The notes beneath the pieces are model-generated. The model did no database searches and had not been told where the DNA came from. It saw only the letters and a program-made list of their open reading frames with translations. From assembly GCA_018896815.1 (NCBI GenBank), contig JAHILY010000005.1, positions 1 through 61,591 of the forward strand: DNA of 61,591 bases. Direction: 5' to 3'. This stretch comes from Candidatus Omnitrophota bacterium. Its GTDB lineage: Bacteria; Omnitrophota; Gorgyraeia; Gorgyraeales; Gorgyraeaceae. The stretch's first letter is position 1. Each line of letters starts with the position of its first letter. The translations under genes were made by a program, and so were the position numbers. Of the stretch, positions 1-42,640 are shown one piece after another.

Positions 1-117
1 ATTGCTACCTTTGTAATGCTGGTCAAAGAACTCGGCATAAAAGACATGCTCAAGGCGGCTGTAATCATGATGTTCGTAGCACTCATAGTAGGCACACTTC
101 TCAATATAATCCTATAA
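1..117 (+). CDS. 3' end of an upstream membrane-protein gene (partial)
   Basis: Frame 1 is open from base 1 to TAA at 115-117. The tail ...AAVIMMFVALIVGTLLNIIL* is a hydrophobic helix. Family cannot be assigned from 38 aa. Confidence 0.4.
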   Translation: MATFVMLVKELGIKDMLKAAVIMMFVALIVGTLLNIIL

Positions 118-137
118 ACATTTTTTTAATTTTTCCC

Positions 138-165
138 TTGACATCCCTAGGTTATATGTTATACT
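138..165 (+). promoter_or_regulatory. Sigma70-like promoter candidate upstream of the DUF2061/cysH operon
   Basis: CCCTTGACAT with TTGACA at 138-143, 16-nt spacer, TATACT at 160-165. The same CCCTTGACAT...TATACTT layout recurs at 48120-48149. Confidence 0.35.
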
Positions 166-246
166 TCTAATTACTACTAATATGATTAGATTAGTAGAGA
201 TTAAAGTTGACAAGCATGATTGGAATAGTAATATAAAGGGGAAAGC

Positions 247-467
247 ATGGAACATCCAAAGAGATCACTTGCAAAGACAGTAACCTGGCGCGTAATAGCT
301 TTTGTGGTAACTATAGTCGCTGTTTATATCTATAGCAAGGATATAAAGGAGTCTCTTGTTGTTGGGATAAGCGCAAATGTCGTAAAGATTTTTTGTATTA
401 TGCACATGAACGAGTCTGGAACAGGGTGAAATTCGGTAGAATTAAAGCCCCAGACTACCAGATATAA
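247..467 (+). pseudogene. DUF2061-type small membrane protein, interrupted by a 1-nt frame shift in a T6 run (389-394)
   Basis: ORF 247-429 begins ...SLAKTVTWRVIAFVVT (DUF2061-like). The -1 frame after the T run reads YYAHERVWNRVKFGRIKAPDYQI* (stop 465-467), which restores the family C-terminus. Confidence 0.6.
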
Positions 468-482
468 TCAGAAGGGGGAGTT

Positions 483-1208
483 ATGAGTTTATTAGAGCCA
501 CAGGAAGACTTAAAGGTATTAGTAGAGACATTGAACTTCAAACAAAAGGTCGATCGTTCACTACAGCTTATAAAGGAAGGCTATGATAAATACGGAGACG
601 GTTTTGTAGTAGCCAATAGCCTTGGCAAGGATTCTGTTGCAGTTTGGCATCTTGCAAAACGCGTAGATCCGAAAATACGAGGGTTTATCGTAACTACCAG
701 GTTTAAACCCAAAGAGACGGTCAAGTTTATGAATGAAGAGGTGAGAAAATATCCTGAGCTTAAGGTTTATAAAAACGATGCGAAGATACCAGATAAGCTA
801 TATGAGACAGATCCGAACAAATGCTGCGATATATTAAAGGTCGAGCCTGTTAAGCACGCAGTTGAAGAGATGGGAGTTACGTGCTGGGTAACAGGCCTTC
901 GCTGCACAGAGGGTCGCACCAGGACAGATTTTAAAGAGGTCGAAGAGCGCGATAAAGGATTAATAAAATTAAACCCTATTCTCATATGGAAAGAACGCGA
1001 GGTCTGGCAATATCTGGCCTTATATGGTGTAAAGGTTAATCCTCTATATACTGAAGGTTACCGCTCTCTTGGATGCGCGCCTTGCACTAAGATCACCAAT
1101 GAGGATAATGAACGTGCAGGACGATGGATAGGCACGAGTAAATGTGGAGGCGAATGCGGTATTCATACACGGCCTTTGAAGGTAAACGTTAACGGAGACG
1201 GCATCTAA
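483..1208 (+). CDS. cysH: Phosphoadenosine/adenosine phosphosulfate reductase (CysH family, Cys-rich Fe-S type)
   Basis: ANSLGKDSVAVWH PP-loop-like motif, CCDILKVEP, GYRSLGCAPCT, C-terminal ECGIH. RBS GGGGGAG lies 5' of the ATG. Confidence 0.85.
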   Translation: MSLLEPQEDLKVLVETLNFKQKVDRSLQLIKEGYDKYGDGFVVANSLGKDSVAVWHLAKRVDPKIRGFIVTTRFKPKETVKFMNEEVRKYPELKVYKNDAKIPDKLYETDPNKCCDILKVEPVKHAVEEMGVTCWVTGLRCTEGRTRTDFKEVEERDKGLIKLNPILIWKEREVWQYLALYGVKVNPLYTEGYRSLGCAPCTKITNEDNERAGRWIGTSKCGGECGIHTRPLKVNVNGDGI

Positions 1209-2174
1209 GTGGTTATTACGCTGGTATTAATCATAGTCTCTGTTTTTGTGGCATTAAATATGGGGGCGAGCGGTTTTTCAGTTTCTTTTACTCCCTCATA
1301 TGGCAGCCGTTTGCTGAAAAAGTCCAGGGCAGTTGTTCTTTATGGACTTTGTGTTTTTGCCGGTGGGTTGCTCATAGGGCCGAGGGTTGTAAGTACCCTG
1401 GTCAATAAGATCTCGCTAGCGCAGCTTAACCCATATTCCGGTCTTTTGATCTTGTTTTCGGCAGGGGCCATGATGTTTTTAAGTAACATGCTGAAAATTC
1501 CGCAGTCCACGAGTTTTGTAACTGTGGCGAGTTTTCTGGGGGCGGGCTTATATTACGGAAAGGTAAACTGGCATACGGTTTCAAAGATTATAATCGTAGC
1601 AGCTGTTTTTTCAGCCCTTTCGTTTATAATCACGTATCTTATTAAAAGAAAGATCTACCCGCCGCACAGGGGCAACCTGCATCTTTATGAGAAGTTTCAT
1701 ATTCACAGGAATAAATTTAAAAATTTTATAATCTGGACTGATATGTATTCGGCCTTTGGGATAGGCACGAATAATGTCGCAAATGTTGTGGCTCCCCTGG
1801 TAGGTTCATTGGGCATAAGCCCGTTTTTAGCCCTTGGATTGTCTGCTCCTCTTTTTGGGTTGGGGGCATATTTCTTTGGAGAGAGGGTCTTGAAGACAGT
1901 GTCCAGGGACATAGTGCCGATCGGTGAAATGTCAGCGGCCATTGTTTCATCGATCACAGCGACCTTTGTCATTATCGCGTCGTTATTAGGATTACCTGCG
2001 CCTTATGTCCAGTTTACTACTTTTTCAGTACTTGCGATAAGTTCTGTCAAAGACGGCACAAGGCATACAGCAGGAAAATCTGTTTTTAAAAGGATAATAT
2101 CCGCATGGATATGCGTGCCCGTAGCCACAGTTTTTTTGAGTTTTTTATTACACTTATTTTTTATTAAAAGGTAA
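1209..2174 (+). CDS. PiT (PHO4) family anion permease, CysP-like putative sulfate permease
   Basis: Polytopic membrane protein with the PiT signatures ALNMGASGFS and GTNNVANVVAPL. GTG start abuts the cysH stop. The sulfate role is inferred from context. Confidence 0.7.
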   Translation: MVITLVLIIVSVFVALNMGASGFSVSFTPSYGSRLLKKSRAVVLYGLCVFAGGLLIGPRVVSTLVNKISLAQLNPYSGLLILFSAGAMMFLSNMLKIPQSTSFVTVASFLGAGLYYGKVNWHTVSKIIIVAAVFSALSFIITYLIKRKIYPPHRGNLHLYEKFHIHRNKFKNFIIWTDMYSAFGIGTNNVANVVAPLVGSLGISPFLALGLSAPLFGLGAYFFGERVLKTVSRDIVPIGEMSAAIVSSITATFVIIASLLGLPAPYVQFTTFSVLAISSVKDGTRHTAGKSVFKRIISAWICVPVATVFLSFLLHLFFIKR

Positions 2175-2175
2175 C

Positions 2176-2574
2176 ATGATTTATATAAATAGAGATCTTA
2201 GAAAGGTGCTTATAGAACACTCTAAGGATGAATTTCCGAATGAGGCGTGCGGTCTTTTGGCTGGAAAAGATAACAGAGTCGAGAGGATTTATGGAATGAG
2301 AAATACCGATAAGAGCGCAACGTCATTTTTTATGGACCCGCAGGAACAGCTGAAGGTCATGAAAGAGATGCGCGCTTCTGGCCTTGATTTTATAGGCGTA
2401 TATCACTCTCATCCTGAGACAAAGGCATATCCTTCAGCTCACGATGTTGAGCTTGCATTTTATCCTGAAGTTTCGTATGTAATTGTCTCATTAAAGGATG
2501 GAGATAATCCAGATATATGTTCATTTAAGATTGTAGAAGGGAAGATCACAAAAGAGGAAGTGAGAGTCGAATGA
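2176..2574 (+). CDS. JAMM/MPN+ metallopeptidase (Mec/HcyD/QbsD-like)
   Basis: EACGLL plus HSHPETKAYPSAHD, which fits the H-x-H-x7-S-x2-D JAMM motif. Confidence 0.8.
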   Translation: MIYINRDLRKVLIEHSKDEFPNEACGLLAGKDNRVERIYGMRNTDKSATSFFMDPQEQLKVMKEMRASGLDFIGVYHSHPETKAYPSAHDVELAFYPEVSYVIVSLKDGDNPDICSFKIVEGKITKEEVRVE

Positions 2575-3605
2575 GTTTTGTAGTAGTTGGCACAAATCAC
2601 AGATATAGCCATATTGAGCTAAGAGAGGAAATATCTTTCTCAAAGAGAGGGCTCCAGGATGCCTTTAATTTCTTGAGAGAGACAGGTGTCTTGAAGTCCA
2701 GCGTTATCCTTTCTACCTGCAACAGGGTAGAGATATATGCTTCTACAGGTACGGCTGAGTCTGGAATACACCAGATAAAGGATTTTCTCTCTAGATTTTA
2801 CGAGATCAATGGCAAAGACCTCTGGCCTTACCTTTATATATATAGGGATGAAGACGCCTTAAGGCATTTATTCAGGGTCGCATCAGGCTTGGATTCCCTG
2901 ATCTTGGGTGAATCGCAGATCTTGGGTCAGGTGAACTCTGCATTTCATGAGTCAGGAAAGAATGGCTTTGTAGATCCTTCTTTAGGAGAGATTTTTAATT
3001 CTGCGATCTCATCAGCAGGAAAGGTACATTTACAAACCAGCATATCTGAAGGGAAGGTGTCTATAGGGAGCGTGGCTGTAGATTTTATAAAGGAAAGAAT
3101 AGGAAGTTTTTTAAGTAAAAATATCTTAATTATAGGCGTTGGCAAGGTTACAGAATTGGTTTTGAAGTATCTGGAGAAAGAAGGCAAAAACGTAGTTTTT
3201 ATTTCTAATAGGACTTTTGAACGGGCTCAGTCTCTGGCTCGTCAGATTGGCGCAAAGGCGGTTAAATTTGACAATTTAAAGGAGTATTTAAGTAAAGCAG
3301 ATGTAGTCATCACAGCAACAAAGAGCCCGCATTTTATTATTAATAAACAGATTATAGAAGAAGCTGTCAGTCAAAAACGCTTACTAATTGTAGATCTGGC
3401 TCTGCCAAGAGATGTCGATCCTCGGATAAAAGAGATAGATAGGATAGAATTATTCGATATAGAGGACTTAACGAAAGTTATTCAGAGGAATAGAGATAAG
3501 AAGAAACATGAGGCTCTTAAGGCCGAGCAGATTATAGAAGACGAGGTACAGAGATTATGCCAGGAACTGTCAGGGTTGGGACAAGAAAGAGCCCTCTTGC
3601 GCTGA
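2571..3605 (+). CDS. hemA: Glutamyl-tRNA reductase, short form lacking the usual C-terminal dimerisation domain
   Basis: STCNRVEIY active-site motif, IIGVGKVTEL NADPH fold, LPRDVDP. Only 344 aa. The 3' end overlaps the next gene by 49 nt. Confidence 0.85.
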   Translation: MSFVVVGTNHRYSHIELREEISFSKRGLQDAFNFLRETGVLKSSVILSTCNRVEIYASTGTAESGIHQIKDFLSRFYEINGKDLWPYLYIYRDEDALRHLFRVASGLDSLILGESQILGQVNSAFHESGKNGFVDPSLGEIFNSAISSAGKVHLQTSISEGKVSIGSVAVDFIKERIGSFLSKNILIIGVGKVTELVLKYLEKEGKNVVFISNRTFERAQSLARQIGAKAVKFDNLKEYLSKADVVITATKSPHFIINKQIIEEAVSQKRLLIVDLALPRDVDPRIKEIDRIELFDIEDLTKVIQRNRDKKKHEALKAEQIIEDEVQRLCQELSGLGQERALLR

Positions 3606-5629
3606 AACAAGTGGAAGAAGTTCTAGTTGGGCTAAAAAAATTTCATCCTGATGTAGGATTTGATATTGTTACCATAGATACATATGGAGATATGGATAAA
3701 AAAACACCTATATCAAATATAGAAGGAACGGATTTTTTTACAAGAGAAATAGACCATGCGCTTTTAAGAGACGAGATTGATATTGCTGTTCACAGCGCTA
3801 AGGATTTACCTGACAACTTAAAAGAGGGGATCAAGATAGCGCTTATTACTGAATCAATCGATCCATACGACTGTTTAGTTTCAAAATCCGGGTTAAAACT
3901 TAGCGAACTTCCTCCAGGGGCAAAGATAGGGACGAGCAGTTCGCGCCGCAAGACACAATTGAAGAAATACAGGAGTGATTTTCAGATCGTAGATATACGA
4001 GGAAATATTGAAGAACGTTTAAGATTACTTGATGATCGCGAGCGACGAGTGACGAACGACGAGCGACGAATAGATGCCATTGTTATTGCAGCTTGTGCGC
4101 TGTTGAGATTAGGTTTAAAACAACGCATAACCGAAAGATTGCCTTTTGAGATTCTAAGGCCACATCCTTTACAGGGTTCGTTGGCAGTAGTAACAAGAAA
4201 GGACAAGGTTGATTTGATAAATCTCGTAAAGACAAAGAAGGTCTATATTGTTGGTGCAGGGCCAGGAAGGCCGGATTTAATAAGTGTGAGAGGATTGCGC
4301 ATTCTTAAAGAGGCCGATGTAGTCATATATGATTATCTTGTCGATAAGGCCCTTTTGGATGAGACTAAGCCAGAATCTGAGCTCATATCTTGCGGCAAGC
4401 TTGGCAAGAATAGATTTTCAGGAAAGTCTATCGAGGCACAGGCAAGGATAAGTGAGCTAATTGTTGAGAAGGCTAAAGAGGGAAGGCGTGTTGTAAGACT
4501 TAAGAATGGTGATGCAACTATTTTTAGCCGCCTAAGAGAAGAGCTCGAGGCATTAACTAGAAATAAGATAGAATTTGAAATAGTGCCTGGCGTTACAGCT
4601 GCAAGCGCAGCAGCAGGTTTTAGCGGCATACCACTTACAGATAGGCATGATTCATCCAGCGTTATTTTTTTAACAGGACACGAATCTGATGATAAGAGAA
4701 AAACTAGTATAGATTGGAATAGAGTGGCTGATTTTGAATCCTTGGTTATATACATGGGTGTTGATAGTATCTCAAAAATAGTCTCAGAGTTAATAAAATC
4801 AGGAAAATCCGGCAACACTCCAGCAGCCGTAGTATCAAAGGCAACAGACATAAACCAGAAAACAGTCAGGGGCAAGTTGAAAAATATTGCTGAAAAGGTA
4901 AGGACAGGAGATATTGAGCCGCCAGCGATATTTATTATTGGAAAAACCGCAGAGCTGGAAAAGGATTTTAACTGGTTCAGGAAGAATAAAAGGGTTTTAT
5001 TTACAGGTCTGTCTAAGGAGAGATTCTTTACAGACGGGACCTATTACCACCTGCCTTTGATTGACATAGGGCCACTCGATGACTATAAGGAATTTGACAG
5101 CCATTTGAAGAAAATCAGACAATTTGACTGGATAGTATTTGCAAGCCGCTATGGCGTGGAGTATTTCTTCGGAAGACTTAAAAAAATTGGGCATGACTCG
5201 AGAATACTTAACAACATAAAAATCGCAGGTGTAGGAAATTCTACAAAGGCAAGGCTTCTTGATTTTGGCATTTCAGCGGATCTGGTGCCGCAAAAGGAAT
5301 CTTCAGAAGGGTTGATCGAGGAGTTTGAGAAGATAGATATCAGAGGGAAGAACATATTTTTGCCCCGCTCTGATATATCTGATAAAGGCTTGGAAAAGGC
5401 CTTTCAGAAACTCGGAGCAATAATAGCCACTTCGTCCGCATATAGAAATAGAATTTCCAGAGATTTGCCTGATTTGGACCTGACCAGCTTTGATGAGGTC
5501 ATGTTTACGAGCCCTTCTACAGTAAGGAATTTTAGAAAAAGATATGGAAGATTGCCCGAGCATGTCAAGGCAAAGTGCATAGGGGATGTGACTTTGAGGG
5601 AGGCAAAGAGATGCCGGTTAATAGATTAA
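3557..5629 (+). CDS. Fusion protein: porphobilinogen deaminase (domains 1-2 only) / uroporphyrinogen-III C-methyltransferase / uroporphyrinogen-III synthase
   Basis: N-terminus VRVGTRKSPLALKQ...HSAKDLP...IGTSSSRR...RGNIEERL (HemC). Middle VYIVGAGPGRPDLISVRG...VRLKNGD (CobA/SUMT). C-terminus ...WIVFASRYGV...FTSPSTV (HemD). Confidence 0.8.
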   Translation: MPGTVRVGTRKSPLALKQVEEVLVGLKKFHPDVGFDIVTIDTYGDMDKKTPISNIEGTDFFTREIDHALLRDEIDIAVHSAKDLPDNLKEGIKIALITESIDPYDCLVSKSGLKLSELPPGAKIGTSSSRRKTQLKKYRSDFQIVDIRGNIEERLRLLDDRERRVTNDERRIDAIVIAACALLRLGLKQRITERLPFEILRPHPLQGSLAVVTRKDKVDLINLVKTKKVYIVGAGPGRPDLISVRGLRILKEADVVIYDYLVDKALLDETKPESELISCGKLGKNRFSGKSIEAQARISELIVEKAKEGRRVVRLKNGDATIFSRLREELEALTRNKIEFEIVPGVTAASAAAGFSGIPLTDRHDSSSVIFLTGHESDDKRKTSIDWNRVADFESLVIYMGVDSISKIVSELIKSGKSGNTPAAVVSKATDINQKTVRGKLKNIAEKVRTGDIEPPAIFIIGKTAELEKDFNWFRKNKRVLFTGLSKERFFTDGTYYHLPLIDIGPLDDYKEFDSHLKKIRQFDWIVFASRYGVEYFFGRLKKIGHDSRILNNIKIAGVGNSTKARLLDFGISADLVPQKESSEGLIEEFEKIDIRGKNIFLPRSDISDKGLEKAFQKLGAIIATSSAYRNRISRDLPDLDLTSFDEVMFTSPSTVRNFRKRYGRLPEHVKAKCIGDVTLREAKRCRLID
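4038..4070. repeat. In-frame short tandem/direct repeat (GAGCGACGA units) inside the HemC domain
   Basis: gcGAGCGACGAgtgacgaacgacGAGCGACGAa encodes RERRVTNDERR. This lies where E. coli HemC has only about 3 residues between LD and YDAI. Confidence 0.6.
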
Positions 5630-6627
5630 GAAGACTCAGGAGGAACAGTGCTATAAGAGACTGGGTCAGCGAGACTGTGCTAAGACCCAAGGATCTCATT
5701 TTGCCTTATTTTGTCATCGATGGAAAGGGTGTTGATAGACCTATTAAATCTCTGCCGGAAGTTAGTCATCTATCGATTGACAAATTGCTCAAAGAAATAG
5801 CTAAGGTGGAAAAAAGAGGGATAAGGTCTATTCTTTTGTTTGGAGTACCTAAGAAAAAGGACAAAATAGGATCTGAGGCGTATAATAAGGACGGCATTGT
5901 TCAAAGAGCGACAAAAGCAATAAAGAAAGAATTCGAAGATTTGGTCGTAATAACAGATGTGTGTCTGTGTAGTTATACGTCTCACGGACATTGTGGTATC
6001 ATTAAGGGACAAGGGACCCCATACCACAAGGGTACGGAGCAGGCAAGTGACAAGAGACAAGGGTATATTATAGATAATGACAAGACTTTAAAGATTTTGG
6101 CGAAGATCGCTCTATCTCATGCTGAAGCTGGTGCTGATCTAGTGGCGCCTTCAGCAATGATGGACGGACAGGTAATGTCAATAAGAGAAGGCTTAGACAA
6201 AAATGGATTTAAGGATATAGGGATAATGGCCTATGCAGCTAAATATGCGTCGAATTTTTATGGCCCTTTTAGAGAGGCATTAGATTCTGGTCCACACTTC
6301 GGAGACAGAAAGACCTATCAGATGGATTTTAGAAATTCAGACCAGGCCCTGAGAGAGATAGGCCATGATATTGAAGAGGGCGCTGATATTGTAATGGTAA
6401 AACCAGCCCTTTCATATCTGGATATTATTTATCGGGCAAAAGAGAAGTTTAATGTACCTGTAGCCGCGTATAATGTAAGCGGTGAATATGCGATGGTGAA
6501 GGCATATTCTCAGGGACAGGGGATTGAAAAAGAGTTGGCTCTGGAGATTTTGACGAGCATAAAGCGTGCTGGGGCGGATTTTATAATTACATACTGGGCA
6601 AAAGAGGCAGCGGGATGGTTAAACTGA
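5611..6627 (+). CDS. hemB: Porphobilinogen synthase (delta-aminolevulinate dehydratase), Zn type
   Basis: DVCLCSYTSHGHCG Cys triad, SAMMDGQV, YAAKYASNFYGPFR, MVKPA. ATG 5611 preferred because GGGAGG lies upstream and the N-terminus MPVNRLRRLRR is typical. Confidence 0.9.
   Translation: MPVNRLRRLRRNSAIRDWVSETVLRPKDLILPYFVIDGKGVDRPIKSLPEVSHLSIDKLLKEIAKVEKRGIRSILLFGVPKKKDKIGSEAYNKDGIVQRATKAIKKEFEDLVVITDVCLCSYTSHGHCGIIKGQGTPYHKGTEQASDKRQGYIIDNDKTLKILAKIALSHAEAGADLVAPSAMMDGQVMSIREGLDKNGFKDIGIMAYAAKYASNFYGPFREALDSGPHFGDRKTYQMDFRNSDQALREIGHDIEEGADIVMVKPALSYLDIIYRAKEKFNVPVAAYNVSGEYAMVKAYSQGQGIEKELALEILTSIKRAGADFIITYWAKEAAGWLN
6004..6063. repeat. In-frame repeat-rich insertion (3 x ACAAGGG plus GACAAG) inside hemB
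   Basis: ACAAGGG at 6009, 6026 and 6057; GACAAG at 6049. Encodes KGQGTPYHKGTEQASDKRQG between HCG and IDND, about 15-18 aa more than the E. coli enzyme has there. Confidence 0.55.
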
Positions 6628-7865
6628 GCGACAAGCGACAAGCGACAAGCGACAAGGAGCTTTTTAGCGAAGCCAGACGATTTATTCCTGGGGGCGTAAA
6701 TAGTCCGGTGAGATCTTTTAAGGCTGTTGGGGGAAGTCCTGTCTTTATAAAGAAGGCCTACGGGGATAAGATTTATAGTGAATGCGGCGAAGAGTTTATT
6801 GATTACTGTCTTTCCTGGGGCGCTTTGATCTTAGGGCATACTCACAGGGAAGTAATCAAGGCTATAGAGAGCTCATTAAAGAACGGAACAAGTTTTGGCG
6901 CAGCTACAAGATTGGAGACAGAATTGGCAATGCTTATTGCAGAGGCTGTTCCTTCAATCGAACAGATTAGATTAACAAATTCAGGCACTGAGGCAGTTAT
7001 GGGCGCGGTCAGACTTGCAAGGGCATACACTGGGAAAAATAAGATTATAAAATTTCAAGGCTCGTATCATGGGCACGCAGATTATCTTTTGGATTGCACA
7101 GGCGTGCCAGAGGACTTTAAGAGACATACAATTGTAGTTCCGTATAACGATATAGGCGCTGTTTTAGAAGCAGCTGAGTTGCACAGGGAAGATTTAGCTG
7201 CGATAATAGTTGAGCCAGTTTCCGGGAATTGCGGAGTGGTATTGTCAGACATTGGTTTTTTGCAGGGTTTGAGAAAGATCGCTGATAAATACAACACAGT
7301 TCTTATTTTCGATGAAGTTATTACTGGATTCAGGGTTTCATACAGCGGCGCGCAGGGAATTTTTGGAATAAAAGCAGATATTACCTGCTTAGGTAAGGTT
7401 ATAGGCGGGGGATTGCCGGTAGGCGCCTTTGGAGGAAGAAGGGAAATTATGGATCTTTTAGCGCCCGAAGGAGACGTCTATCAGGCAGGGACATTGTCAG
7501 GTAATCCAGTCGCGGTCACAGCCGGGATCACGACCTTGAAAATACTGAAAGAAATAAATCCATACCCAGATCTGGAAACCAAAACAAAGAAACTATGTGA
7601 AGGGATTATGGCGAGCGCTAAAAAATATGATATAAAGCTGAGGGCTAATTATATTAGTTCTATGTTTAGCATATTTTTTGGAGAAAATGGACAGGATAAG
7701 GGATTATTTAAAAAGTTTTTCCACGGATTATTAAAAAGAGGTATTTATTTTTCACCATCTGGTTTTGAGGCAAATTTTTTGTCAACCGCGCATAGTAATG
7801 AAGATGTAAAGAAGACATTAGATGTGATCGATGAGACATTTGAAAGTTTAAGGAGGTCAGAATGA
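6615..7865 (+). CDS. hemL: Glutamate-1-semialdehyde 2,1-aminomutase
   Basis: [12 protein letters not shown], class-III aminotransferase body, [14 protein letters not shown]-lysine region. ATG overlaps the hemB stop. Confidence 0.9.
6628..6655. repeat. Perfect tandem heptamer repeat (GCGACAA x4) in the first codons of hemL
   Basis: gcgacaa gcgacaa gcgacaa gcgacaa starts directly after the hemB stop (6625-6627). Translated as ...DKRQATSDK... Confidence 0.85.
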
Positions 7866-8995
7866 ATATTCTAATCAATGGTAAAAAAGAAGAGTTAAAA
7901 GATGTTGTTACAGTGGCTAAGCTTTTAGAGCAGAAAAAGATCAGACCTGAGGTCGTGACTGTAGAATTGAACGATAAGATCATAGAAAAGAGCAAATATA
8001 ATGAAATCCAGCTCAAGGACAATGACAGAGTGGAGTTTGTCTATTACATGGGAGGCGGATCCGGAAATAATTCCAAGCTGATGGAAAATGTCCTGGAGTC
8101 GATAGGCAATACGCCCATGGTGAAACTTAATAAGATTGTAACCGAAGATATGGCCCGCATATTCGCAAAACTCGAGTTTTTTAACCCAGGCAGCAGCGTC
8201 AAAGACAGGATATGCCTTTCTATGATCGAGGATGCTGAAAACAAGGGGCTTCTTTCCAAGGGTTCCACCATAATCGAGCCCACAAGCGGAAATACCGGGA
8301 TAGGTCTTGCAATGATTTGTGCTGTCAAAGGCTATAAATGCATAATCACTATGCCCGAGACAATGAGTCTCGAGAGAATCTATATACTCAGGTCTTTCGG
8401 CGCCGAGGTCATTCTTACTTCGGGCGCAGAAGGCATGAAGGGCTCTATTAAAAAAGCTGAAGAGTTACTAAAGAAGACACCAGTGAGTTTTATGCCCCAG
8501 CAGTTCAAGAATAAGGCAAATCCTGCTATTCATAGAGAGACAACGGCCAAAGAGATATTGGATAGCACTGATGGCAAAGTGGATGCGTTTGTTGCCGGCA
8601 TAGGAACAGGGGGGACTATAACAGGCGTAGGAGAAGTTTTAAAGAAACATAACCCTGATGTTAAGATAATAGGGGTCGAACCAGCATCGAGTGCTGTGTT
8701 GTCTGGAAAAGGACCTGGGCCGCATAAGATTCAGGGAATCGGCGCGGGATTTGTACCGGATGTTTTAAATCGTCAGGTAATCGATGAGATAATTCAGGTT
8801 AAGGACAGTGATGCTTTTAAAACCTCAAGGAGATTAGCCAGGGAAGAAGGATTGTTTGTCGGTATATCAGCAGGCGCAGCAGCATGGGCAGCTATAAAGG
8901 TGGCAAAAAATCTTGACAAAGAAAAAAGGGTGGTCGTGATTTTTCCTGATACTGGTGAGAGATATTTTTCAATGCAGCAGTATTTCGAGGCATAG
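7862..8995 (+). CDS. ThiS-like sulfur-carrier domain fused to cysteine synthase (CysK/CysM family)
   Basis: Residues 1-66 are ThiS-sized and end ...[10 protein letters not shown] (8051-8059). Linker SGNNSKL, then [12 protein letters not shown]...NPGSSVKDR...GIGTGGT. Confidence 0.8.
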
Positions 8996-9006
8996 GGAGC
9001 AATTAT

Positions 9007-9864
9007 ATGACTGAATATAATATAAAAGAACTCAAGAGTGGTGGGTTGATGAAGCAGAAAGAAAAGGATATATTTTCTCTTCGTCTGCGTATAGTTGGAG
9101 GTTTTGTCAAATCCGAACAGCTGATCAAGCTTTCGGAGATAGCCGATAGATTTGGTAAAGGATATATACATTTGACCACAAGACAAGGCATTGAGATCCC
9201 GAACGTAAACATCAAAGACTTTGAGAAAGTTAAAAAGGAATTAAACGAAGCTGAGCTTCAGATGGGCGCATGTGGCCAGAGGGTAAGGACAGTAACTGCA
9301 TGCCAGGGAAAGGAATGCAGTCATGGCTTAATAGATTGTCTAATGCTCGCAAGAGAGATCGATCATAAATATTTTGGCATAGGCGGCCACCCTCATAAAT
9401 TTAAGATAGGGATTACTGGCTGTCCAAATGCATGTATTAAACCTCATGAAAATGACTTGGGCATATTAGGCAGATTAAAGAAAAGGTTCGTAAGAGAAAA
9501 GTGTAACTATTGCGGGCTCTGCGCAGAGATCTGTCCAGTAGGCGCAATAGAGGTGGATAAGGACGATGAGAAGATAGTATTTAATGCAGAGAAATGCATT
9601 GGATGCGGAGATTGTGTGTATTCCTGCCCGACTGATGCGTGGCAAAAAAGGCAGGAGGGCTATACTATTTTTGTCGGTGGCAAGATGGGAAAATTCCCGA
9701 AGCTCGGCATAAAGGCCTTTGACTTTATTGAGACAAAAGAAAAGGTCTTTGAGGTCATAGAAAAGACATTAGAGTTTTATAAAAAGTTCGGCAATAAAGG
9801 CGAGAGATTCAGGGAGACATTGGACAGAGTAGGAGTGGAGAAATACAAGGAGACGGTTTCATGA
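9007..9864 (+). CDS. Small sulfite/nitrite-reductase-like protein with ferredoxin insert (Dsr-like/AsrC-like)
   Basis: LTTRQGIEIPNV, CQGKECSHG, TGCPNACIKP siroheme/4Fe-4S-type motifs. Also 2 x CxxCxxCxxxCP (CNYCGLCAEICP, CIGCGDCVYSCP). Confidence 0.7.
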   Translation: MTEYNIKELKSGGLMKQKEKDIFSLRLRIVGGFVKSEQLIKLSEIADRFGKGYIHLTTRQGIEIPNVNIKDFEKVKKELNEAELQMGACGQRVRTVTACQGKECSHGLIDCLMLAREIDHKYFGIGGHPHKFKIGITGCPNACIKPHENDLGILGRLKKRFVREKCNYCGLCAEICPVGAIEVDKDDEKIVFNAEKCIGCGDCVYSCPTDAWQKRQEGYTIFVGGKMGKFPKLGIKAFDFIETKEKVFEVIEKTLEFYKKFGNKGERFRETLDRVGVEKYKETVS

Positions 9865-10097
9865 GTGATGCAGTGCCAAACGAAGTCTTGAACTTGGAGA
9901 ATATAGCGTGTCCGAATAATTTTGTCAGGACAAAATTGAAACTTGAGGAGATGGAAACTGGTCAGACACTGGAGGTAATTTTGGATGATGGCGAGCCCAT
10001 CAGAAATGTGCCTCGAGCCGTAAAGGAAGAAGGCCACGAGATTCTAAAGGCAGAAAAGATAGATAATAAATGGAAGATATTGATTAAAAAAATATGA
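9861..10097 (+). CDS. TusA/SirA-like sulfur-transfer protein
   Basis: 78 aa. N-terminal Cys in LENIACPNNFVRTKLKLEEM and ...LEVILDDGEPIRNVPRAVKEEGH, as in the TusA fold. Confidence 0.6.
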   Translation: MSDAVPNEVLNLENIACPNNFVRTKLKLEEMETGQTLEVILDDGEPIRNVPRAVKEEGHEILKAEKIDNKWKILIKKI

Positions 10098-10107
10098 GGT
10101 GATTACA

Positions 10108-11334
10108 ATGAGTTATGTAAAAGGATTAAAGTGCAGAGAATGCGGCAGGGAGTTTCCTAAAGAGGCCCTCTATGTATGCGAATATTGCTTTGGGCCATTA
10201 GAGGTAGACTATGATTATGAGAATATAAAGAAAAAGCTGACCAGGCAGGTTATAGAATCCCGACCCAAGAATCTCTGGCGCTACAGAGAGCTCCTGCCTA
10301 TTGATGGAGAGCCTACTGACGGCTTGAAATCAGGGTTTACTCCTTTGATAAGGGCAAGGAATCTGGAAAAGGTGCTCGGTGTAAAAGAGCTTTACTTAAA
10401 GGACGACTCTGTAAATCATCCCACGCTTTCCTTTAAGGATAGAGTGGTTGCAGTCGCCCTTTCAAAGGCGAAGGAGTTCGGCTTTAAGACTGTTGCATGC
10501 GCCTCAACAGGAAACCTTGCAAATTCTGTAGCAGCCCAGTCTGCTGTAGCTGGCCTGGAAAGATTTATATTTATACCAGCTGACCTTGAATCAGGCAAGG
10601 TTATAGGCACATTGATTTATAATCCTACTCTTATAGCAGTAGAGGGGAATTATGACCAGGTAAACAGGCTCTGTTCAGAGGTTGCAACAAAATATAAGTG
10701 GGCATTTGTGAATATAAATATAAGGCCTTATTATGCAGAGGGTTCAAAGACATATGGTTATGAGATTGCAGAGCAGTTAGGCTGGAGGACTCCTAAGCAT
10801 ATAATTGTCCCTTGCGCAGGAGGTTCTCTTATTACAAAGATCTGGAAGGGACTAAAGGAATTTAAAAATTTAGGACTGATAAATAAGGTTGATACTAAGA
10901 TTTATGCAGCCCAGGCAACTGGCTGTGCGCCAATTGTTACAGCGATAAAGGAGAATTCTGAGATCATAAAGCCTATCAAGCCCAATACCATTGCCAAATC
11001 ACTCGCAATAGGAAATCCTGCTGATGGCATGTATGCTGCTGCGACTGTAAAAGACTCTGGAGGCACTGCCGAAGATGTTACAGATGATGAAATCGTAGAG
11101 GCAATAAAGCTTTTGGCAGTTACAGAAGGTGTATTTACTGAGACAGCAGGAGGCGTGACACTCGGAGTTACAAAGAAACTCATCGAACAGGGAAAGATCC
11201 CCAAAGACGAAGCAATAGTCGTGTGCATAACAGGAAATGGCTTAAAGACACAGGAAGCAGTGGCTAAAAAAATAGGAAGACCTATAAAGATAAAACCAAA
11301 TATTGCTTCATTTGAAGAACATGTGAAGCTATAA
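10108..11334 (+). CDS. Threonine-synthase-like PLP enzyme with N-terminal Cys4 zinc ribbon
   Basis: CRECGREF...[10 protein letters not shown] ribbon, [11 protein letters not shown] lysine, [17 protein letters not shown] 10108 follows GAGGTG. Confidence 0.8.
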
Positions 11335-11344
11335 AGGAGGTAAT

Positions 11345-11626
11345 ATGTCAGTTAAGGTAAGGATACCAACGCCTTTACAGAAACACACGAATAATCAAGG
11401 AGAGGTCAGTGCGGATGCCACGAATATAAGGAATCTCATCGAGACCCTTGAGAAGAATTTTCCAGGCATTAAAGAGAGGATCTGCGATGAGAGTGGCAAT
11501 ATCCGCAGATTTATCAATATCTATGTCAATGAAGAGGATGTGCGGTTTTTGCAAAAAGACGAAACCCCTCTTAAGGATGGCGATGAGGTCTCAATAATTC
11601 CAGCAATAGCAGGAGGCAGTCAATGA
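11345..11626 (+). CDS. CysO/MoaD-type sulfur-carrier protein with masked C-terminal Gly-Gly (..AIAGGSQ*)
   Basis: [14 protein letters not shown]...[14 protein letters not shown] closely resembles my recollection of M. tuberculosis CysO. Two extra residues follow the GG. Confidence 0.75.
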
Positions 11627-12453
11627 AACTTACAGATGCGCAGATAGAGCGCTATTCAAGACAATTGATATTGCCTAACATAGGCGGCAAGGGCCAGGAA
11701 AAGATTTTAAACGCAAAGGTCCTGGTGATCGGCGCAGGAGGACTTGGTTCGCCTGCGTCGTTATATCTTGCGTCAGCTGGCGTGGGAAAGATCGGCATTG
11801 TGGATTCTGACAAGGTCGAGGTAAACAATCTCCAGAGACAGATAGTGCATTCCACAAGTACTGTTGGGAAGCCAAAGGTAGATTCTGCAAAAGAAAGACT
11901 CAATGCAATAAATCCCGAGATAGAGATAGTGCCTTTCAATCTACGGCTAACCTCTGCCAATATCATGGACATCATAAAGGACTATGATATTGTCGTGGAT
12001 GGCTCTGATAATTTTCCGACGAGGTTTCTTGTAAATGACGCATGTGTTCTGGCTAAGAAGCCTCTTTCGCACGGCGGCATATTCAGGTTTGACGGCCAGG
12101 CAATTACAATCTTGCCAGGTGAAAGTGCATGCTACAGGTGTCTTTTTCCTGAGCCGCCTCCGCCAGGCCTTGTTCCGAGCTGTCAGGAGGCAGGCATATT
12201 AGGTGTAGTTGCTGGGATAATAGGGACTATCCAGGCAAACGAGGTATTGAAATATATACTGAAAACAGGGGATCTTTTGACAGGAAGATTATTGGTGTTT
12301 AACGCGCTGGATTCGAGCTTCAGGCAGGTCAAGGTCCCTAAGGATCCGAATTGTCCGGTATGCGGCAAGAATCCGACTGTTACAGAATTGATAGATTATG
12401 AACAATTCTGTCAAGTGAAACCCAGGTCCGCCGCAGGCGGATCTGATGGCTGA
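11623..12453 (+). CDS. ThiF/MoeB/HesA-family E1-like adenylyltransferase
   Basis: [34 protein letters not shown] and CPVC zinc motifs. Confidence 0.85.
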
Positions 12454-12459
12454 ACTTGT

Positions 12460-12568
12460 CCCCCCTGTTTTCTTTGTTTTCATCCCTAGAAATCGCGAAT
12501 GCGATTTCAGGGATTAAATCCCGGAAATTCTCCGAATTTCACGGGACAAAGAAAACAAAGAAGGGGGG
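12460..12568. repeat. Nested palindromic element, two-hairpin subtype (C6 ... G6 clamp)
   Basis: CCCCCCTGTTTTCTTTG... / ...CAAAGAAAACAAAGAAGGGGGG outer arms. Inner hairpins CCCTAGAAATCGC-GAAT-GCGATTTCAGGG and CCCGGAAATTC-TCC-GAATTTCACGGG. Same architecture as 44656-44766. Confidence 0.8.
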
Positions 12569-12605
12569 ATAATTCGCACCTTCATAGAAGTTAACCAGAG
12601 AAGAT

Positions 12606-12638
12606 GTAGTTACGAAAATCAAAGATTTTCATAACTAC
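12606..12638. repeat. GAAAATC-type hairpin module
   Basis: GTAGTTACGAAAATC-AAA-GATTTTCATAACTAC: 15-bp arms with one mismatch. Confidence 0.7.
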
Positions 12639-12665
12639 AGTGCTCATTAAAAAAAGGAGGAGGAC

Positions 12666-12905
12666 ATGCCAAAACTCATTGTACATCTAATATATCCACA
12701 GAAATTAATCAAAGAACCTGTAATCTACACCATGGCTAAAAAATATGATGTAATCCCGAATATCAGAAGGGCCAAGGTCACAGAGGAAATAGGCGAGATG
12801 ACACTGGAACTCAACGGCACAAAGGAAAACCTTGAGGCCGGCAGAAAGTATTTAGAAAAGACAGGAGTCAAAGTCGAACCAGTCGTAGGAGATATTGTTG
12901 AATAA
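12666..12905 (+). CDS. Stand-alone NIL-domain protein
   Basis: 79 aa, LIYPQKLIKEPVIY...NIRRAKV...GEMTLELNG resembles the MetN C-terminal NIL domain. Strong RBS AGGAGGAGG. Confidence 0.55.
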   Translation: MPKLIVHLIYPQKLIKEPVIYTMAKKYDVIPNIRRAKVTEEIGEMTLELNGTKENLEAGRKYLEKTGVKVEPVVGDIVE

Positions 12906-13827: not shown

Positions 13828-13836
13828 AGGTAACTT

Positions 13837-15192: not shown

Positions 15193-15194
15193 AT

Positions 15195-15848: not shown

Positions 15849-15977
15849 GACTAAAGTCCCAGAGGAAGCTAGGTCTTTATATTTTGGCTAAATGGGACCT
15901 TTGCCTCTTGTTGGTATTCTTTATATATATACAATATAGCTAATATTCCTATTTTATATTAGGGAGAGTAGTGTTTC

Positions 15978-42636: not shown

Positions 42637-42640
42637 AGCA

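Follow-up and report, generated by a model that had tools for sequence, protein, structure and literature searches.

All of the chemistry that we propose below for the locus analysed here is inferred by analogy with the protein-thiocarboxylate systems CysO/CysM/Mec/MoeZ, HcyS/HcyD/HcyF and MetM/MetO. A MetM/MetO/Mec/MoeZ homocysteine system has been described (GapMind 2026; PMC12172450), and a comparable arrangement of genes appears as operon class 4e (PMC1779556). Our locus lies in a window of 61,591 nt (the whole stretch of DNA that was analysed) from a groundwater Omnitrophota bacterium, and contains 13 co-directional genes on the + strand between positions 483 and 12453; all features given below are on this strand. 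A sequence-only reading had proposed this cluster, and its gene order and labels agree with the open reading frame coordinates, with the Pfam and NCBIfam profile assignments of all 13 frames, and with the spacing of the genes, which overlap or are separated by at most 11 nt (-49 to +11 nt). We give a probability of roughly 0.6 to the reading that these genes form a single operon, starting at about 247 or at 483 and ending at 12905, in which a sulfite module is joined to a two-carrier protein-thiocarboxylate module. The figure is a joint one for the whole reading, including the inferred mechanism as well as what was observed directly: which genes are present and in what conserved order, their motifs, how the fusion is joined, that the carriers and E1 occur nowhere else in the genome, which enzymes supply the substrates, and that SAM riboswitches control orthologs.

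The limits first proposed for the cluster, 483 to 12453, enclose the 13 genes, but the unit is larger. At its 3′ end it includes a gene for a stand-alone NIL-domain protein of 79 residues (12666..12905; PF09383), and at its 5′ end it probably also includes an open reading frame for a small DUF2061 membrane protein (247..429; PF09834). In relatives with a simple cysH-hem-SiR operon (L108-L112) the latter lies directly 5′ of cysH. Comparison by phmmer and by sequence indicates a frameshift or truncation at its C-terminus here, which leaves 60 aa against 73 aa in relatives. A promoter-like TTGACA-16-TATACT lies at 138-165. Between 483 and 12453 the only terminator-like matches on the + strand are weak ones, with 8 seen overall against 11.6 expected from shuffled sequence, and a riboswitch scan of the same interval found none. 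A search of RNA sequencing runs turned up none that contains this sequence.

The sulfite module, of a kind typical of Omnitrophota, opens with a CysH-like sulfonucleotide reductase of the Fe-S type (483..1208; PAPS_reduct; NF002537, 167.5 bits, cut-off 154), which retains the CC...CxxC motif, the catalytic ECGIH and an intact PP-loop (SLGKDS), and whose best PDB matches are 7LHR and 2GOY. It is a divergent variant: alignment with E. coli CysH and CysD and with canonical relatives shows its PP-loop to be CysD-like, and a 13-residue C-terminal extension ends in GDGI, a G-x-G-I ending that is shared by 98 of 120 homologs and that resembles the end of E. coli CysE. The next gene encodes a CysP-like permease of the PiT family (1209..2174; PF01384 (PHO4); NF053884 SulfPermCysPBac, 193.8 bits, below the cut-off of 400), a candidate importer of sulfate or another sulfur oxyanion; other transporters fill this slot in relatives. 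Further downstream lies a small sulfite reductase of the siroheme type, into which a 2x[4Fe-4S] ferredoxin domain is inserted (9007..9864; PF03460, PF01077 and Fer4); it is the sole NIR_SIR protein in the genome. Its residues 12-284 match residues 342-611 of the F420-dependent sulfite reductase Fsr (PDB 7NP8, E=8.8e-48), and it resembles the C-terminal, siroheme half of that enzyme. It is followed by a TusA/SirA-like sulfur-relay protein (9861..10097; PF01206, 77.4 bits), the cysteine of which (ACPNN) is also kept in L001, L002 and L004.

The tetrapyrrole genes comprise hemA, hemL, hemB and a triple fusion. The glutamyl-tRNA reductase HemA (2571..3605; PF05201 and PF01488; TIGR01035, 357.7 bits) lacks the C-terminal dimerisation domain, matching positions 2-336 of the 416 in the TIGR01035 profile. 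The fusion (3557..5629) joins HemC (PF01379, residues 5-219), SUMT (PF00590, 228-444) and HemD (PF02602, 497-686). Its SUMT part is a uroporphyrinogen-III C-methyltransferase and its HemC part consists of domains 1-2 alone (positions 1-212 of 293 in TIGR00212); in relatives, in contrast, HemC is a separate gene of 220-258 aa. Porphobilinogen synthase, HemB (5611..6627; PF00490, 473.8 bits; NF006762, 476.7 bits), likely starts at the ATG at 5611, within a frame that opens with GTG at 5575, and glutamate-1-semialdehyde 2,1-aminomutase, HemL (6615..7865; NF000818, 547.5 bits), completes the set. Under the joint reading, these genes would yield precorrin-2, the siroheme precursor, and so supply the cofactor precursor of the sulfite reductase. 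It had been noted that sat/cysDN, cysC, sirB/sirC and moaE are missing from the window; this holds, and for all but sirB it is true of the entire genome (93.5% complete), where no sat, cysD/N, cysC, CysG N-terminal/SirC domain or moaE was found. With Sat, CysDN and SirC undetected, the pathway steps on either side of the operon genes are incomplete in this genome.

The thiocarboxylate module contains a precursor in which a ThiS carrier is fused to a cysteine synthase (7862..8995; ThiS and PALP). The ThiS beta-grasp domain occupies residues 1-66 (nt 7862-8059) and ends in YYMGGG, which is followed by a variable linker and, from about residue 72, by an O-acetylserine sulfhydrylase of the CysK type. 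It passes the models for thiS (TIGR01683, 69.4 bits, cut-off 37.45) and for cysK (TIGR01139, 468 bits, cut-off 351), while the cysM model requires 394 bits and gives 305. CysK enzymes act on free sulfide, and since this domain is of the CysK rather than the CysM type, the carrier may not be its sulfur donor. The metallopeptidase that could separate the two parts is a JAMM/MPN+ protein (2176..2574; PF14464, Prok-JAB), the sole copy by a phmmer search of the genome, with a complete E...HSHx7Sx2D motif and matches to PDB 2KKS (E=1.4e-29) and JAMM1 (5LDA). It is predicted to expose the Gly-Gly ends of the carriers and to cleave carrier-Cys and carrier-Hcy so that the amino acid is freed; JAMM enzymes cleave carrier-enzyme fusions, including MoaD-MoaE fusions (PMC8832034; PMC4326299).

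Cleavage of the fusion is a prediction, and it could instead be that ThiS is never released and stays at the N-terminus of CysK as a permanent beta-grasp appendage that regulates, scaffolds or docks, that CysK uses free sulfide or persulfide, and that the thiocarboxylate forms on the free carrier alone. Such an appendage would fit a CysK domain that is a standard CysK equivalog, and ubiquitin-like domains that are not carriers are known to be fused to enzymes (Iyer et al., PMC1779556). We nevertheless judge it distinctly unlikely. The fusion family counts at least 370 proteins, and MGGG is invariant at the junction (118/118 fusions) beside a linker that varies; in the AF2 model the linker is predicted to be disordered, the only residues with pLDDT under 50 being 62-70 and 367-377. 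Unfused ThiS and CysK occur in G032, L031, L048 and L063; Planctomycetia and Nitrospirales are among the lineages with unfused ThiS-CysK. The ThiS of G032, directly 3′ of the JAB gene, ends in GGG plus 4 residues, and the JAB-ThiS-CysK order of unfused relatives is that of mec-cysO-cysM. Documented JAMM cleavage of MoaD-MoaE fusions also speaks for a released carrier.

The remaining genes of the module suggest a second branch. The gene at 10099..11334 encodes a PLP enzyme of the ThrC family (PALP family profiles), which has a Zn-ribbon (CxxC...CxxC) at its N-terminus. This enzyme is 58-74% identical to cross-phylum orthologs and 42% identical to the true ThrC of the genome, which is encoded separately in a hom-thrC operon. 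It is followed by a free CysO/MetO-like sulfur carrier of the ThiS/MoaD family (11345..11626; PF02597, 64.5 bits), which ends in AIAGG-SQ, two residues past GG (0-7 in orthologs), and whose best PDB match, over its full length, is M. tuberculosis CysO (3DWG chain C, E=6.4e-22). Of 80 loci from many phyla, 75 have a carrier gene beside the ThrC-like gene, and a SAM-I riboswitch precedes the ThrC-like orthologs in 12 of the 16 loci tested. By the behaviour of the gene pair, these two appear to be the published MetM/MetO homocysteine module, and the enzyme is by analogy a MetM-type candidate that would convert O-phosphohomoserine and carrier-thiocarboxylate to homocysteine. The last of the 13 genes encodes an E1-like adenylyltransferase of the MoeB/ThiF family (11623..12453; 276 aa; PF00899, 291.9 bits; NF004281, 295.3 bits, cut-off 266), with two CxxC Zn motifs and a conserved cysteine in PSCQEAG, and without a rhodanese domain. 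The ThiS/MoaD carriers of the genome number exactly two and its E1 proteins one, and all three lie inside the operon; a single E1 is found in 8 of 10 cluster-bearing relatives. This census, the MetM/MetO-like pairing and the unfused JAB-ThiS-CysK genes favour the earlier suggestion that one E1 and one JAMM may serve both a cysteine and a homocysteine branch.

The same proteins could be read as ordinary molybdenum cofactor (Moco) parts (MoaD/MoeB) and thiamine parts (ThiS/ThiF) that stand beside sulfur genes merely as users of cysteine or sulfide, with CysK and the ThrC-like enzyme using free sulfide or making threonine. ThiS passes the thiS equivalog, the free carrier scores above the moaD_arch cut-off (51.3 against 49.5 bits) and E1 passes the MoeB subfamily model; they are the only such proteins in a genome that also encodes moaA, moaC, moaB, moeA, mobA and a molybdoenzyme; and ThiS/ThiG have been seen beside cysteine synthase in Chlorobi (Iyer et al., PMC1779556). 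In G006, moreover, thiE-thiG-thiH lie directly 3′ of the NIL gene of the operon and that genome has no carriers besides the two of the operon, so that ThiS may function in thiazole synthesis, either as well or instead. The ordinary-parts explanation is, however, highly improbable. MoaE is absent from this genome (93.5% complete) and from 39 of 40 relatives, the sole exception having its own MoaD adjoining MoaE and a second E1; no ThiG was found in the genome, which makes thiazole via Thi4. A Moco-only role, with moaE elsewhere, was the competitor named by the sequence-only reading; it fails, and so does a thiamine-only role, because MoaE and ThiG are both missing. ThiS is, besides, fused to CysK throughout a large family, and the free carrier is nearest to CysO and follows the ThrC-like gene, often behind SAM riboswitches.

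It is less improbable, though still unlikely, that the operon works as proposed but that Moco synthesis, with MOSC replacing MoaE, draws on its single E1 as well, and perhaps on the free carrier or ThiS; in ThiG-bearing relatives such as G006, thiazole synthesis would do likewise. The whole genome has one E1 and two carriers, and in it moaA-moaC-MOSC-moaB occur in this order without MoaD or MoaE; as a precedent, M. tuberculosis MoeZR reportedly serves both CysO and MoaD (PMC3227635). Against such dual use, we know of no mechanism for making molybdopterin without MoaE, the role of MOSC is speculative, and Thi4 makes ThiS unnecessary for thiamine in this genome.

In the two-branch reading that we prefer, CysH would deliver sulfite, which the sulfite reductase would reduce. 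The single JAMM would first expose Gly-Gly ends by cutting ThiS~CysK at G66|S67 and trimming the two extra residues of the free carrier, the single E1 would adenylate the carrier C-termini, and reduced sulfur would pass to them, probably via the TusA cysteine, to form carrier thiocarboxylates. ThiS-COSH would then give its sulfur to O-acetylserine on CysK in a cysteine branch, and CysO/MetO-like carrier-COSH to O-phosphohomoserine on the MetM-type ThrC paralog in a homocysteine branch, after which JAMM would hydrolyse the carrier-amino-acid adducts and recycle the carriers. Enzymes supplying both substrates are encoded in the genome (CysE, and a HomK-type homoserine kinase at 548 bits), and neither MetA nor a MetB/Y/Z-family enzyme was found there.

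The NIL protein would be an accessory of the homocysteine branch. Its gene lies directly 3′ of E1 in every relative (L001, L002, L004, L005, L022, L023, L024 and L026), is the conserved last gene of the operon, and is present in 28 of 80 MetM-type loci. Translational fusions of carrier and NIL (G032, L029, L031, L035, L036, L046, L057 and L064) suggest that NIL partners the MetO-like carrier; it is possibly a methionine or homocysteine sensor. In relatives, E1 and NIL either overlap or are separated by 1-4 nt or by as much as about 40 nt, whereas here a nested-hairpin element of 120 nt is inserted (12454..12573; RNA fold -64.8 kcal/mol, z = -10.9), and a second hairpin of 16 bp lies at 12605-12639.

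About 10 of 40 relatives share the gene order of the operon, and the carrier pair is likewise present in about 10 of the 40. The genes stand in the same order in independent contigs from metagenomes and in species genomes (L001, L002, L004, L005, G006, G029 and G036), so the arrangement is not due to chance. A simple cysH-SirC-hem-SiR operon stands alone in other Omnitrophota; probably, then, a cysH-hem-SiR operon came first and the thiocarboxylate genes were added to it. The proposed tie between the tetrapyrrole genes and sulfite reduction survives, but their supposed insertion between the JAMM and carrier genes probably ran in the reverse direction. While the individual parts were already known, their combination appears to be undescribed, as do the ThiS~CysK precursor fusion, the CysE-like tail of CysH and the NIL partner protein. 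For the organism, the carrier route is one of two, as gene content gives a complete second route that works on free sulfide, through CysK2-HcyBio (contig C73) and NIL-ferredoxin (contig C112, beside a 238-aa ORF, a pair that matches AbpE_bact and NIL-Fer4 of L001 by arrangement); HcyBio shares an operon with the cluster in G036. On paper, this makes the homocysteine branch redundant.

Open reading frame listing together with Pfam and NCBIfam profiles bore out all the genes that the sequence-only reading had named between 483 and 12453, in place and on the + strand. The block comprises cysH (483-1208), a PiT/CysP-like permease (1209-2174), a JAMM peptidase with the motif E...HSHx7Sx2D in its translation (2176-2574), hemA (2571-3605), a HemC-SUMT-HemD fusion (3557-5629), hemB (starting at 5575 or 5611 and ending at 6627), hemL (6615-7865), a ThiS domain fused to CysK (ThiS~CysK, 7862-8995), a small sulfite reductase of the NIR_SIR family that carries a ferredoxin insert (9007-9864), TusA (9861-10097), an enzyme of the ThrC family that has a CxxC...CxxC ribbon at its N-terminus (10099-11334), a free MoaD/ThiS-family carrier ending in AIAGGSQ (11345-11626), and a 276-aa E1 without a rhodanese domain (11623-12453). 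The lysines of both PLP enzymes are legible in their translations (SVKDR and SFKDR), as are the glycine loop, two CxxC pairs and conserved cysteine of the E1. We put the probability at roughly 0.6 that the whole operon works as a two-carrier system, in which one E1 and one JAMM would serve a cysteine branch (ThiS/CysK) and a homocysteine branch (free carrier/ThrC-like enzyme).

Neighbouring genes of the block overlap or lie no more than 11 nt apart. A consensus scan for terminators found only weak + strand matches inside it, overall fewer than in shuffled sequence, and an Rfam search of positions 1-16000 of the window found no riboswitch or leader. Neighbourhood conservation, which the sequence-only reading had proposed to check, was found: the same gene order recurs in a 168-kb JGI contig (L001), a 112-kb contig (L002), "bacterium Unc6" and a near-identical contig (L004, L005), and three species genomes of other genera and families within the same class (G006, G029, G036). 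The PhnD-like binding protein, histidine kinase and NarL-type regulator encoded farther 3' in the window are not conserved neighbours of the cluster. In sequencing data, the window sequence is present only in DNA metagenomes from groundwater, and no RNA run was found to contain it. Two local variants were observed along the way. On the L004 and L005 contigs, the ThrC-like gene is absent or cut to a 152-aa fragment (L004 12243-12958; L005 2514-2972), with carrier, E1 and NIL-domain gene kept, and a CysTWA-like ABC transporter stands in place of cysH-PiT. In the window itself, a DUF2061 ORF 5' of cysH (247-429) departs from its 73-aa orthologs past residue 49 and stops early at 60 aa, which suggests a frameshift, either real or an assembly error.

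A NIL-domain gene of 79-105 aa lies directly 3' of E1 in all same-order loci and genomes, and for this reason we take the NIL gene of the window (12666-12905, + strand) as the last gene of the operon. The distance from E1 to NIL is 1-4 nt in L001, L002, L004, L005 and G006, no more than about 40 nt or an overlap in the rest, and 212 nt in the window. Two hairpins occupy the longer spacer, one nested and 120 nt long (12454-12573; -64.8 kcal/mol, z = -10.9), the other of 16 bp (12605-12639); because E1 and NIL are nearly contiguous in the relatives and hairpins fill the spacer here, we take the spacer to be an insertion. No further copy of the terminal arm of the larger hairpin was found elsewhere in the window at up to three mismatches. 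Fusion proteins of 171-216 aa that join a carrier to NIL through Gly-Gly are encoded in a related species genome (G032; locus L025, 7213-7731) and in seven loci of other phyla (L029, L031, L035, L036, L046, L057, L064), which argues that NIL belongs with the homocysteine branch. At L038 (5235-6299), a carrier-GG-E1 fusion lies beside a ThiS~CysK fusion. Carriers made as precursors are therefore common in the system, given the fusions to NIL and to E1.

A census of the genome (1.5 Mb, 114 contigs, 93.5% complete) was made with HMM searches and local phmmer using window and E. coli proteins. The only ThiS/MoaD-family carriers in the genome are the two of the operon, and the only E1 is that of the operon, which contains PF00899 alone and scores 352.9 bits against the MoeZ model (cut-off 647). 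The sequence-only reading had set against itself a role of the carrier and E1 in molybdenum cofactor (Moco) synthesis only, with moaE elsewhere in the genome. This does not hold: MoaE is absent from the 93.5%-complete genome and from 39 of 40 relatives, and the sole relative that has it (G037) carries its own MoaD adjoining MoaE plus a second E1. The window does encode Moco genes (41650-44002) in the order moaA-moaC-MOSC domain protein-moaB, with the MOSC gene where moaE would be expected, as well as a molybdoenzyme module; no MoaD lies beside them, and the genome has neither MoaE nor a further carrier. Neither ThiG nor a separate ThiS was found in the genome, where thiazole synthesis proceeds via Thi4. 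Because MoaE and ThiG are absent and the carriers and E1 are confined to the operon, the Moco-only role is removed. In G006, thiE-thiG-thiH lie directly 3' of NIL (L026, 15065-17648) and the only carriers are the two of the operon, and ThiS freed from CysK may feed thiazole synthesis there too; L001 has Thi4-ThiM-ThiE 3' of NIL. The E1 tail AAGGSDG was considered as a carrier-like Gly-Gly end and rejected for lack of conservation in L001, L002 and L004.

The homocysteine branch is the better founded of the two. The ThrC-like protein shares 42% identity with the true ThrC of the genome, which lies with homoserine dehydrogenase in a hom-thrC operon on contig C49, and 58-74% with orthologs from Planctomycetota, Nitrospirota, Nitrospinota, Verrucomicrobiota, Chloroflexota, Aquificaceae, Acidobacteriota and many cyanobacteria. 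When genomes were scanned for such orthologs with a nine-sequence alignment as query, a CysO/MoaD-like carrier adjoined the ThrC-like gene in 75 of 80 loci; the same 80 loci contained NIL (28), E1 (23), CysK (20) and JAB (16). A SAM-I riboswitch lies directly 5' in 12 of the 16 ThrC-like loci scanned (68-88 bits, gathering threshold 44.4). In the window, the free carrier starts 10 nt 3' of the ThrC-like gene and ends in AIAGG-SQ, and its best solved relative is Mycobacterium tuberculosis CysO (3DWG chain C, E=6e-22). O-phosphohomoserine could be supplied by HomK/ThrB2 (TIGR02535) on contig C76, which scores 547.8 bits, above the cut-off; it was taken in place of the sole match to E. coli ThrB, on contig C16, which was dropped as its sequence appears to resemble IspE. 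No match to E. coli MetA or to E. coli MetB, of the MetB/Y/Z family, was found in the whole 93.5%-complete genome.

The closest match to this gene set is MetM/MetO, which with Mec and MoeZ carries out O-phosphohomoserine-dependent homocysteine synthesis in Streptomyces albulus (Hasebe et al. 2024, as presented in GapMind 2026 and PMC12172450). According to PMC12172450, cyanobacteria have homologs of MetM, and metM of S. albulus is preceded by a SAM riboswitch. As in that system, the window has a ThrC paralog followed by a CysO-like Gly-Gly carrier, with a JAMM and an E1 available, and the genome has a separate true ThrC and a homoserine kinase; orthologs of the window enzyme lie behind SAM riboswitches, as metM does. 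By analogy, ThrC-like enzyme, carrier, JAMM and E1 form the MetM/MetO/Mec/MoeZ architecture. Unlike S. albulus, the window pair sits inside a 14-gene sulfur operon with no riboswitch and is accompanied by a NIL protein, its E1 lacks the MoeZ rhodanese domain with TusA present instead, and the enzyme bears an N-terminal Zn-ribbon. The link to S. albulus MetM is indirect, by way of the homologs that PMC12172450 names in cyanobacteria. On this comparison we hold, with good confidence, that homocysteine would be made here by a carrier-dependent route of the MetM/MetO type.

The cysteine branch centers on the ThiS~CysK fusion. A search with the ThiS part at fusion length returned at least 370 proteins, and all 120 matches listed combine PF02597 with PF00291 at about 377-383 aa, apart from two shorter ones that are partial sequences. 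These fusions come mostly from Omnitrophota and are named only "cysteine synthase A". Among the 118 full-length fusions, the junction FVYYMGGG is nearly invariant and its MGGG is present in all (118/118, 100%), followed by a linker that varies in both length and sequence. An AlphaFold model of ThiS~CysK (62 family members, pLDDT 82.8) gives confident folds for the two domains, with pLDDT below 50 only at residues 62-70, the junction, and in the final 11 residues. The two parts also occur as separate genes. G032 and L031 have the order JAB-ThiS-CysK, and the unfused ThiS of G032 ends in GGG plus four extra residues; ThiS and CysK are likewise unfused in Planctomycetia and Nitrospirales loci (ThiS-CysK in L048 and L063), with one E1 per branch in the Nitrospirales loci. 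L038, labelled Actinomycetota, has a ThiS~CysK fusion, a MoaD~E1 fusion and SUMT/HemD. The sulfhydrylase domain scores 468 bits against the cysK model (cut-off 351) and falls short of the cysM models (305 and 294 bits; cut-offs 394 and 413); its best PDB matches are CysK enzymes, and CysE is encoded in the genome. The domain is of the CysK and not the CysM type, with O-acetylserine as its likely substrate. In the proposed mechanism, JAMM would free ThiS from CysK at G66, E1 would thiocarboxylate the freed ThiS, and CysK would take sulfur from the ThiS thiocarboxylate with O-acetylserine. It is in these three steps, drawn by analogy, that the model is least secure, and we favor a carrier-dependent cysteine branch by a narrower measure than the homocysteine branch.

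Two sets of characterized proteins bear on this branch. The first is CysO/CysM/Mec+/MoeZ of M. tuberculosis, with which the window shares genes for a predicted thiocarboxylate carrier, for a sulfhydrylase of the PLP type and for a hydrolase of the JAMM family. The JAB-ThiS-CysK order of the unfused relatives resembles mec-cysO-cysM, and the free carrier of the window has CysO itself as its best solved relative. Unlike CysO, the carrier that goes with the sulfhydrylase is ThiS-type and translationally fused to it, and unlike the O-phosphoserine-specific CysM the enzyme is CysK-type; the E1 also lacks the rhodanese domain of MoeZ. Because of the type of enzyme and the missing rhodanese domain, the cysteine branch departs from CysO/CysM in two defining features. 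The second set consists of carrier~enzyme fusions cleaved at Gly-Gly, namely M. tuberculosis MoaX (PMC4326299), Deinococcus MoaD-MoaE with DRJAMM (PMC8832034) and Haloferax SAMP1-MoaE with HvJAMM1 (PMC4443979). ThiS~CysK is like these in having an N-terminal ubiquitin-like carrier joined through a conserved junction Gly-Gly and a flexible linker to the enzyme that it would serve, with a JAMM available; it differs in that its partner is a cysteine synthase rather than MoaE and that its cleavage is a prediction. By analogy, MoaX and the JAMM-cut Deinococcus MoaD-MoaE are the closest functional precedents.

The sulfur for both branches may come from the small reductase, which combines NIR_SIR_ferr with the NIR_SIR fold and a ferredoxin insert in Pfam, contains the siroheme/[4Fe-4S] cysteine motifs CQGKEC and CPNAC, and is the sole NIR_SIR protein of the genome. 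Over residues 12-284 it matches the siroheme half of an F420-dependent sulfite reductase (7NP8, E=8.8e-48). As the sequence-only reading had it, the tetrapyrrole genes end at SUMT. HemC lacks the third, cofactor-Cys domain in the window's genome and in all relatives examined (genes of 215-258 aa) and is fused to SUMT-HemD in the window; HemA lacks the C-terminal dimerization domain. In the 93.5%-complete genome hemE was not detected, and no SirC/CysG N-terminal domain was found in the genome with TIGR01470 and the SirC-like protein of simpler operons as queries. The absence from the window of sat/cysDN, cysC, sirC and moaE, which that reading had also remarked on, extends to the whole 93.5%-complete genome. 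In the Bacillus subtilis cysH operon the order is cysH-cysP-sat-cysC-sumT-sirB-sirC. The window likewise has cysH followed by a PiT-family CysP permease, with SUMT in the same operon; it differs in having the full hemA to hemD trunk and thiocarboxylate genes and in lacking sat, cysC, sirB and sirC.

A simpler operon in other Omnitrophota, such as Ca. Gorgyraea atricola, has the order DUF2061-cysH-SirC-hemA-hemC-SUMT-hemB-hemL-small SiR, with a 157-aa SirC between cysH and hemA and with no CysK, carrier, JAMM, E1 or ThrC-like gene. Because this operon occurs alone, the thiocarboxylate genes look like additions to an existing cysH-hem-SiR operon; it looks as if PiT-JAB replaced SirC, ThiS~CysK slotted in before SiR, and the other genes were appended. 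The sequence-only reading had taken the tetrapyrrole genes as an insertion between the JAMM and carrier genes; its functional logic stands, and the direction is probably reversed. An Omnitrophota survey (PMC10066038) counted putative dissimilatory sulfite reductases, under the label "DsrA (COG2221)", in 23 genomes, and small reductases in an assimilatory context, like that at 9007-9864, might have been counted among them.

The operon's CysH is a variant of its family. It scores 167.5 bits against NF002537 (cut-off 154) and has the Fe-S cysteines (CC...CxxC) and the catalytic ECGIH, together with an intact PP-loop, SLGKDS (residues 44-49, window 612-629), which aligns with SIGKDS of E. coli CysD. 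The corresponding position reads SFGIQA, SGAEDV or SFGAED in E. coli CysH, in APS reductases of known structure and in CysH proteins from relatives that contain Sat or CysDN. Its C-terminus (1167-1205) reads ...ECGIHTRPLKVNVNGDGI, a 13-residue extension past ECGIH that ends in GDGI and places the catalytic cysteine 16 residues from the C-terminus. The last four residues are those of the E. coli CysE tail (FEYGDGI), which docks in the CysK active site; the genome's own CysE ends in DEMPEA. A G-x-G-I end is present in 98 of 120 close CysH homologs. In all eight tail-bearing CysH loci examined, CysK is encoded within the operon or close to it (fused in six, unfused and directly 5' in one, about 10 kb 3' in another), and in all four tail-less loci examined no CysK lies within 10 kb of the operon; these 12 loci are a small and phylogenetically non-independent sample. 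We speculate that the tail, in place of serine acetyltransferase, plugs the CysK active site, and would either gate sulfite production by the O-acetylserine or sulfide that CysK senses or pass sulfur on unreleased, giving a protein-bound line through CysH, SiR, TusA, the JAMM-cleaved carriers and CysK/MetM. We regard this as rather unlikely.

A search of 40 genomes, comprising 39 relatives and the genome of the window, found the variant in 18. Sat was found in none of the 18, CysD is encoded elsewhere in six, including the two closest relatives, and neither is present in 12. Sat, CysD/N and CysC were not detected in the window's genome (1.5 Mb, 93.5% complete). The idea that the PP-loop makes Sat unnecessary is weakened by the six variant genomes that have CysD elsewhere. 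Because the two closest relatives have CysD, the absence of sulfate activation here may be an assembly gap, and this puts a self-activating CysH at low odds: that the CysD-like PP-loop activates sulfate itself in the 12 variant genomes without Sat and CysD is very improbable.

A second, free-sulfide route also appears to be encoded. One contig (C73, 12240-15195) has the order Rrf2 regulator-CysK2-HcyBio(DUF39)-NifU-like, and another (C112, 5773-6909) has NIL-ferredoxin beside a 238-aa ORF that is COG2122-like by position only, occupying the slot of the AbpE_bact gene in L001. This set matches the homocysteine pathway of DUF39 (HcyBio), NIL-ferredoxin and COG2122 (PMC5764234). In G036 the operon under study begins with HcyBio, and in L001 NIL-ferredoxin and the AbpE_bact gene lie 5' of cysH. 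HcyBio and NIL-ferredoxin are shared with that pathway at the level of the genome, and the NIL domain at the level of the operon; unlike NIL-ferredoxin, the operon NIL lacks a ferredoxin domain, and its link, in several phyla by fusion, is with the MetO-like carrier and not with HcyBio.

Iyer, Burroughs and Aravind 2006 (PMC1779556) defined an operon class 4e, and the neighborhood as a whole has every feature of it: a carrier, a JAB, an E1 that lacks rhodanese, SirA/TusA, a gene of the PAPS-reductase family, a sulfite reductase and a transporter. As in class 4e and in HcyS/HcyD/HcyF/MetY of Wolinella succinogenes, the carrier has extra C-terminal residues for removal by JAB. Wolinella differs in using MetY where the window has a ThrC paralog, the window's genome having no Cys_Met_Meta_PP enzyme, and both precedents differ from the window, where a further carrier, fused to CysK, would form a second branch and where tetrapyrrole genes and NIL are included. 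By these comparisons the neighborhood fits class 4e, the homocysteine branch fits MetM/MetO, and the cysteine branch would work like CysO/CysM. A literature search, whose scope took in a minority of subscription journals, found no description of a ThiS~CysK fusion, a tailed CysH, NIL with MetM/MetO or such an Omnitrophota operon. Apparently undescribed are therefore the ThiS~CysK precursors, a CysH variant bearing the CysK-binding tail of CysE, and NIL, which recurs as a partner of MetM/MetO and is often fused to the carrier.

At least 370 proteins annotated as "cysteine synthase A" are, on this evidence, ThiS~CysK precursors akin to ubiquitin fusion precursors. Misannotation as threonine synthase (the ThrC-like gene), as CysK (the fusion) and perhaps as dissimilatory DsrA (COG2221; the small SiR) could distort the picture of metabolism reconstructed for groundwater communities. 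The routes by which protein thiocarboxylates lead to cysteine and to homocysteine have so far been studied separately and in few model organisms; in our model, this operon from a small-genome, uncultivated phylum would run both from one E1 and one JAMM, wired directly both to the reduction of sulfite and to genes that supply the precursor of the reductase's cofactor.
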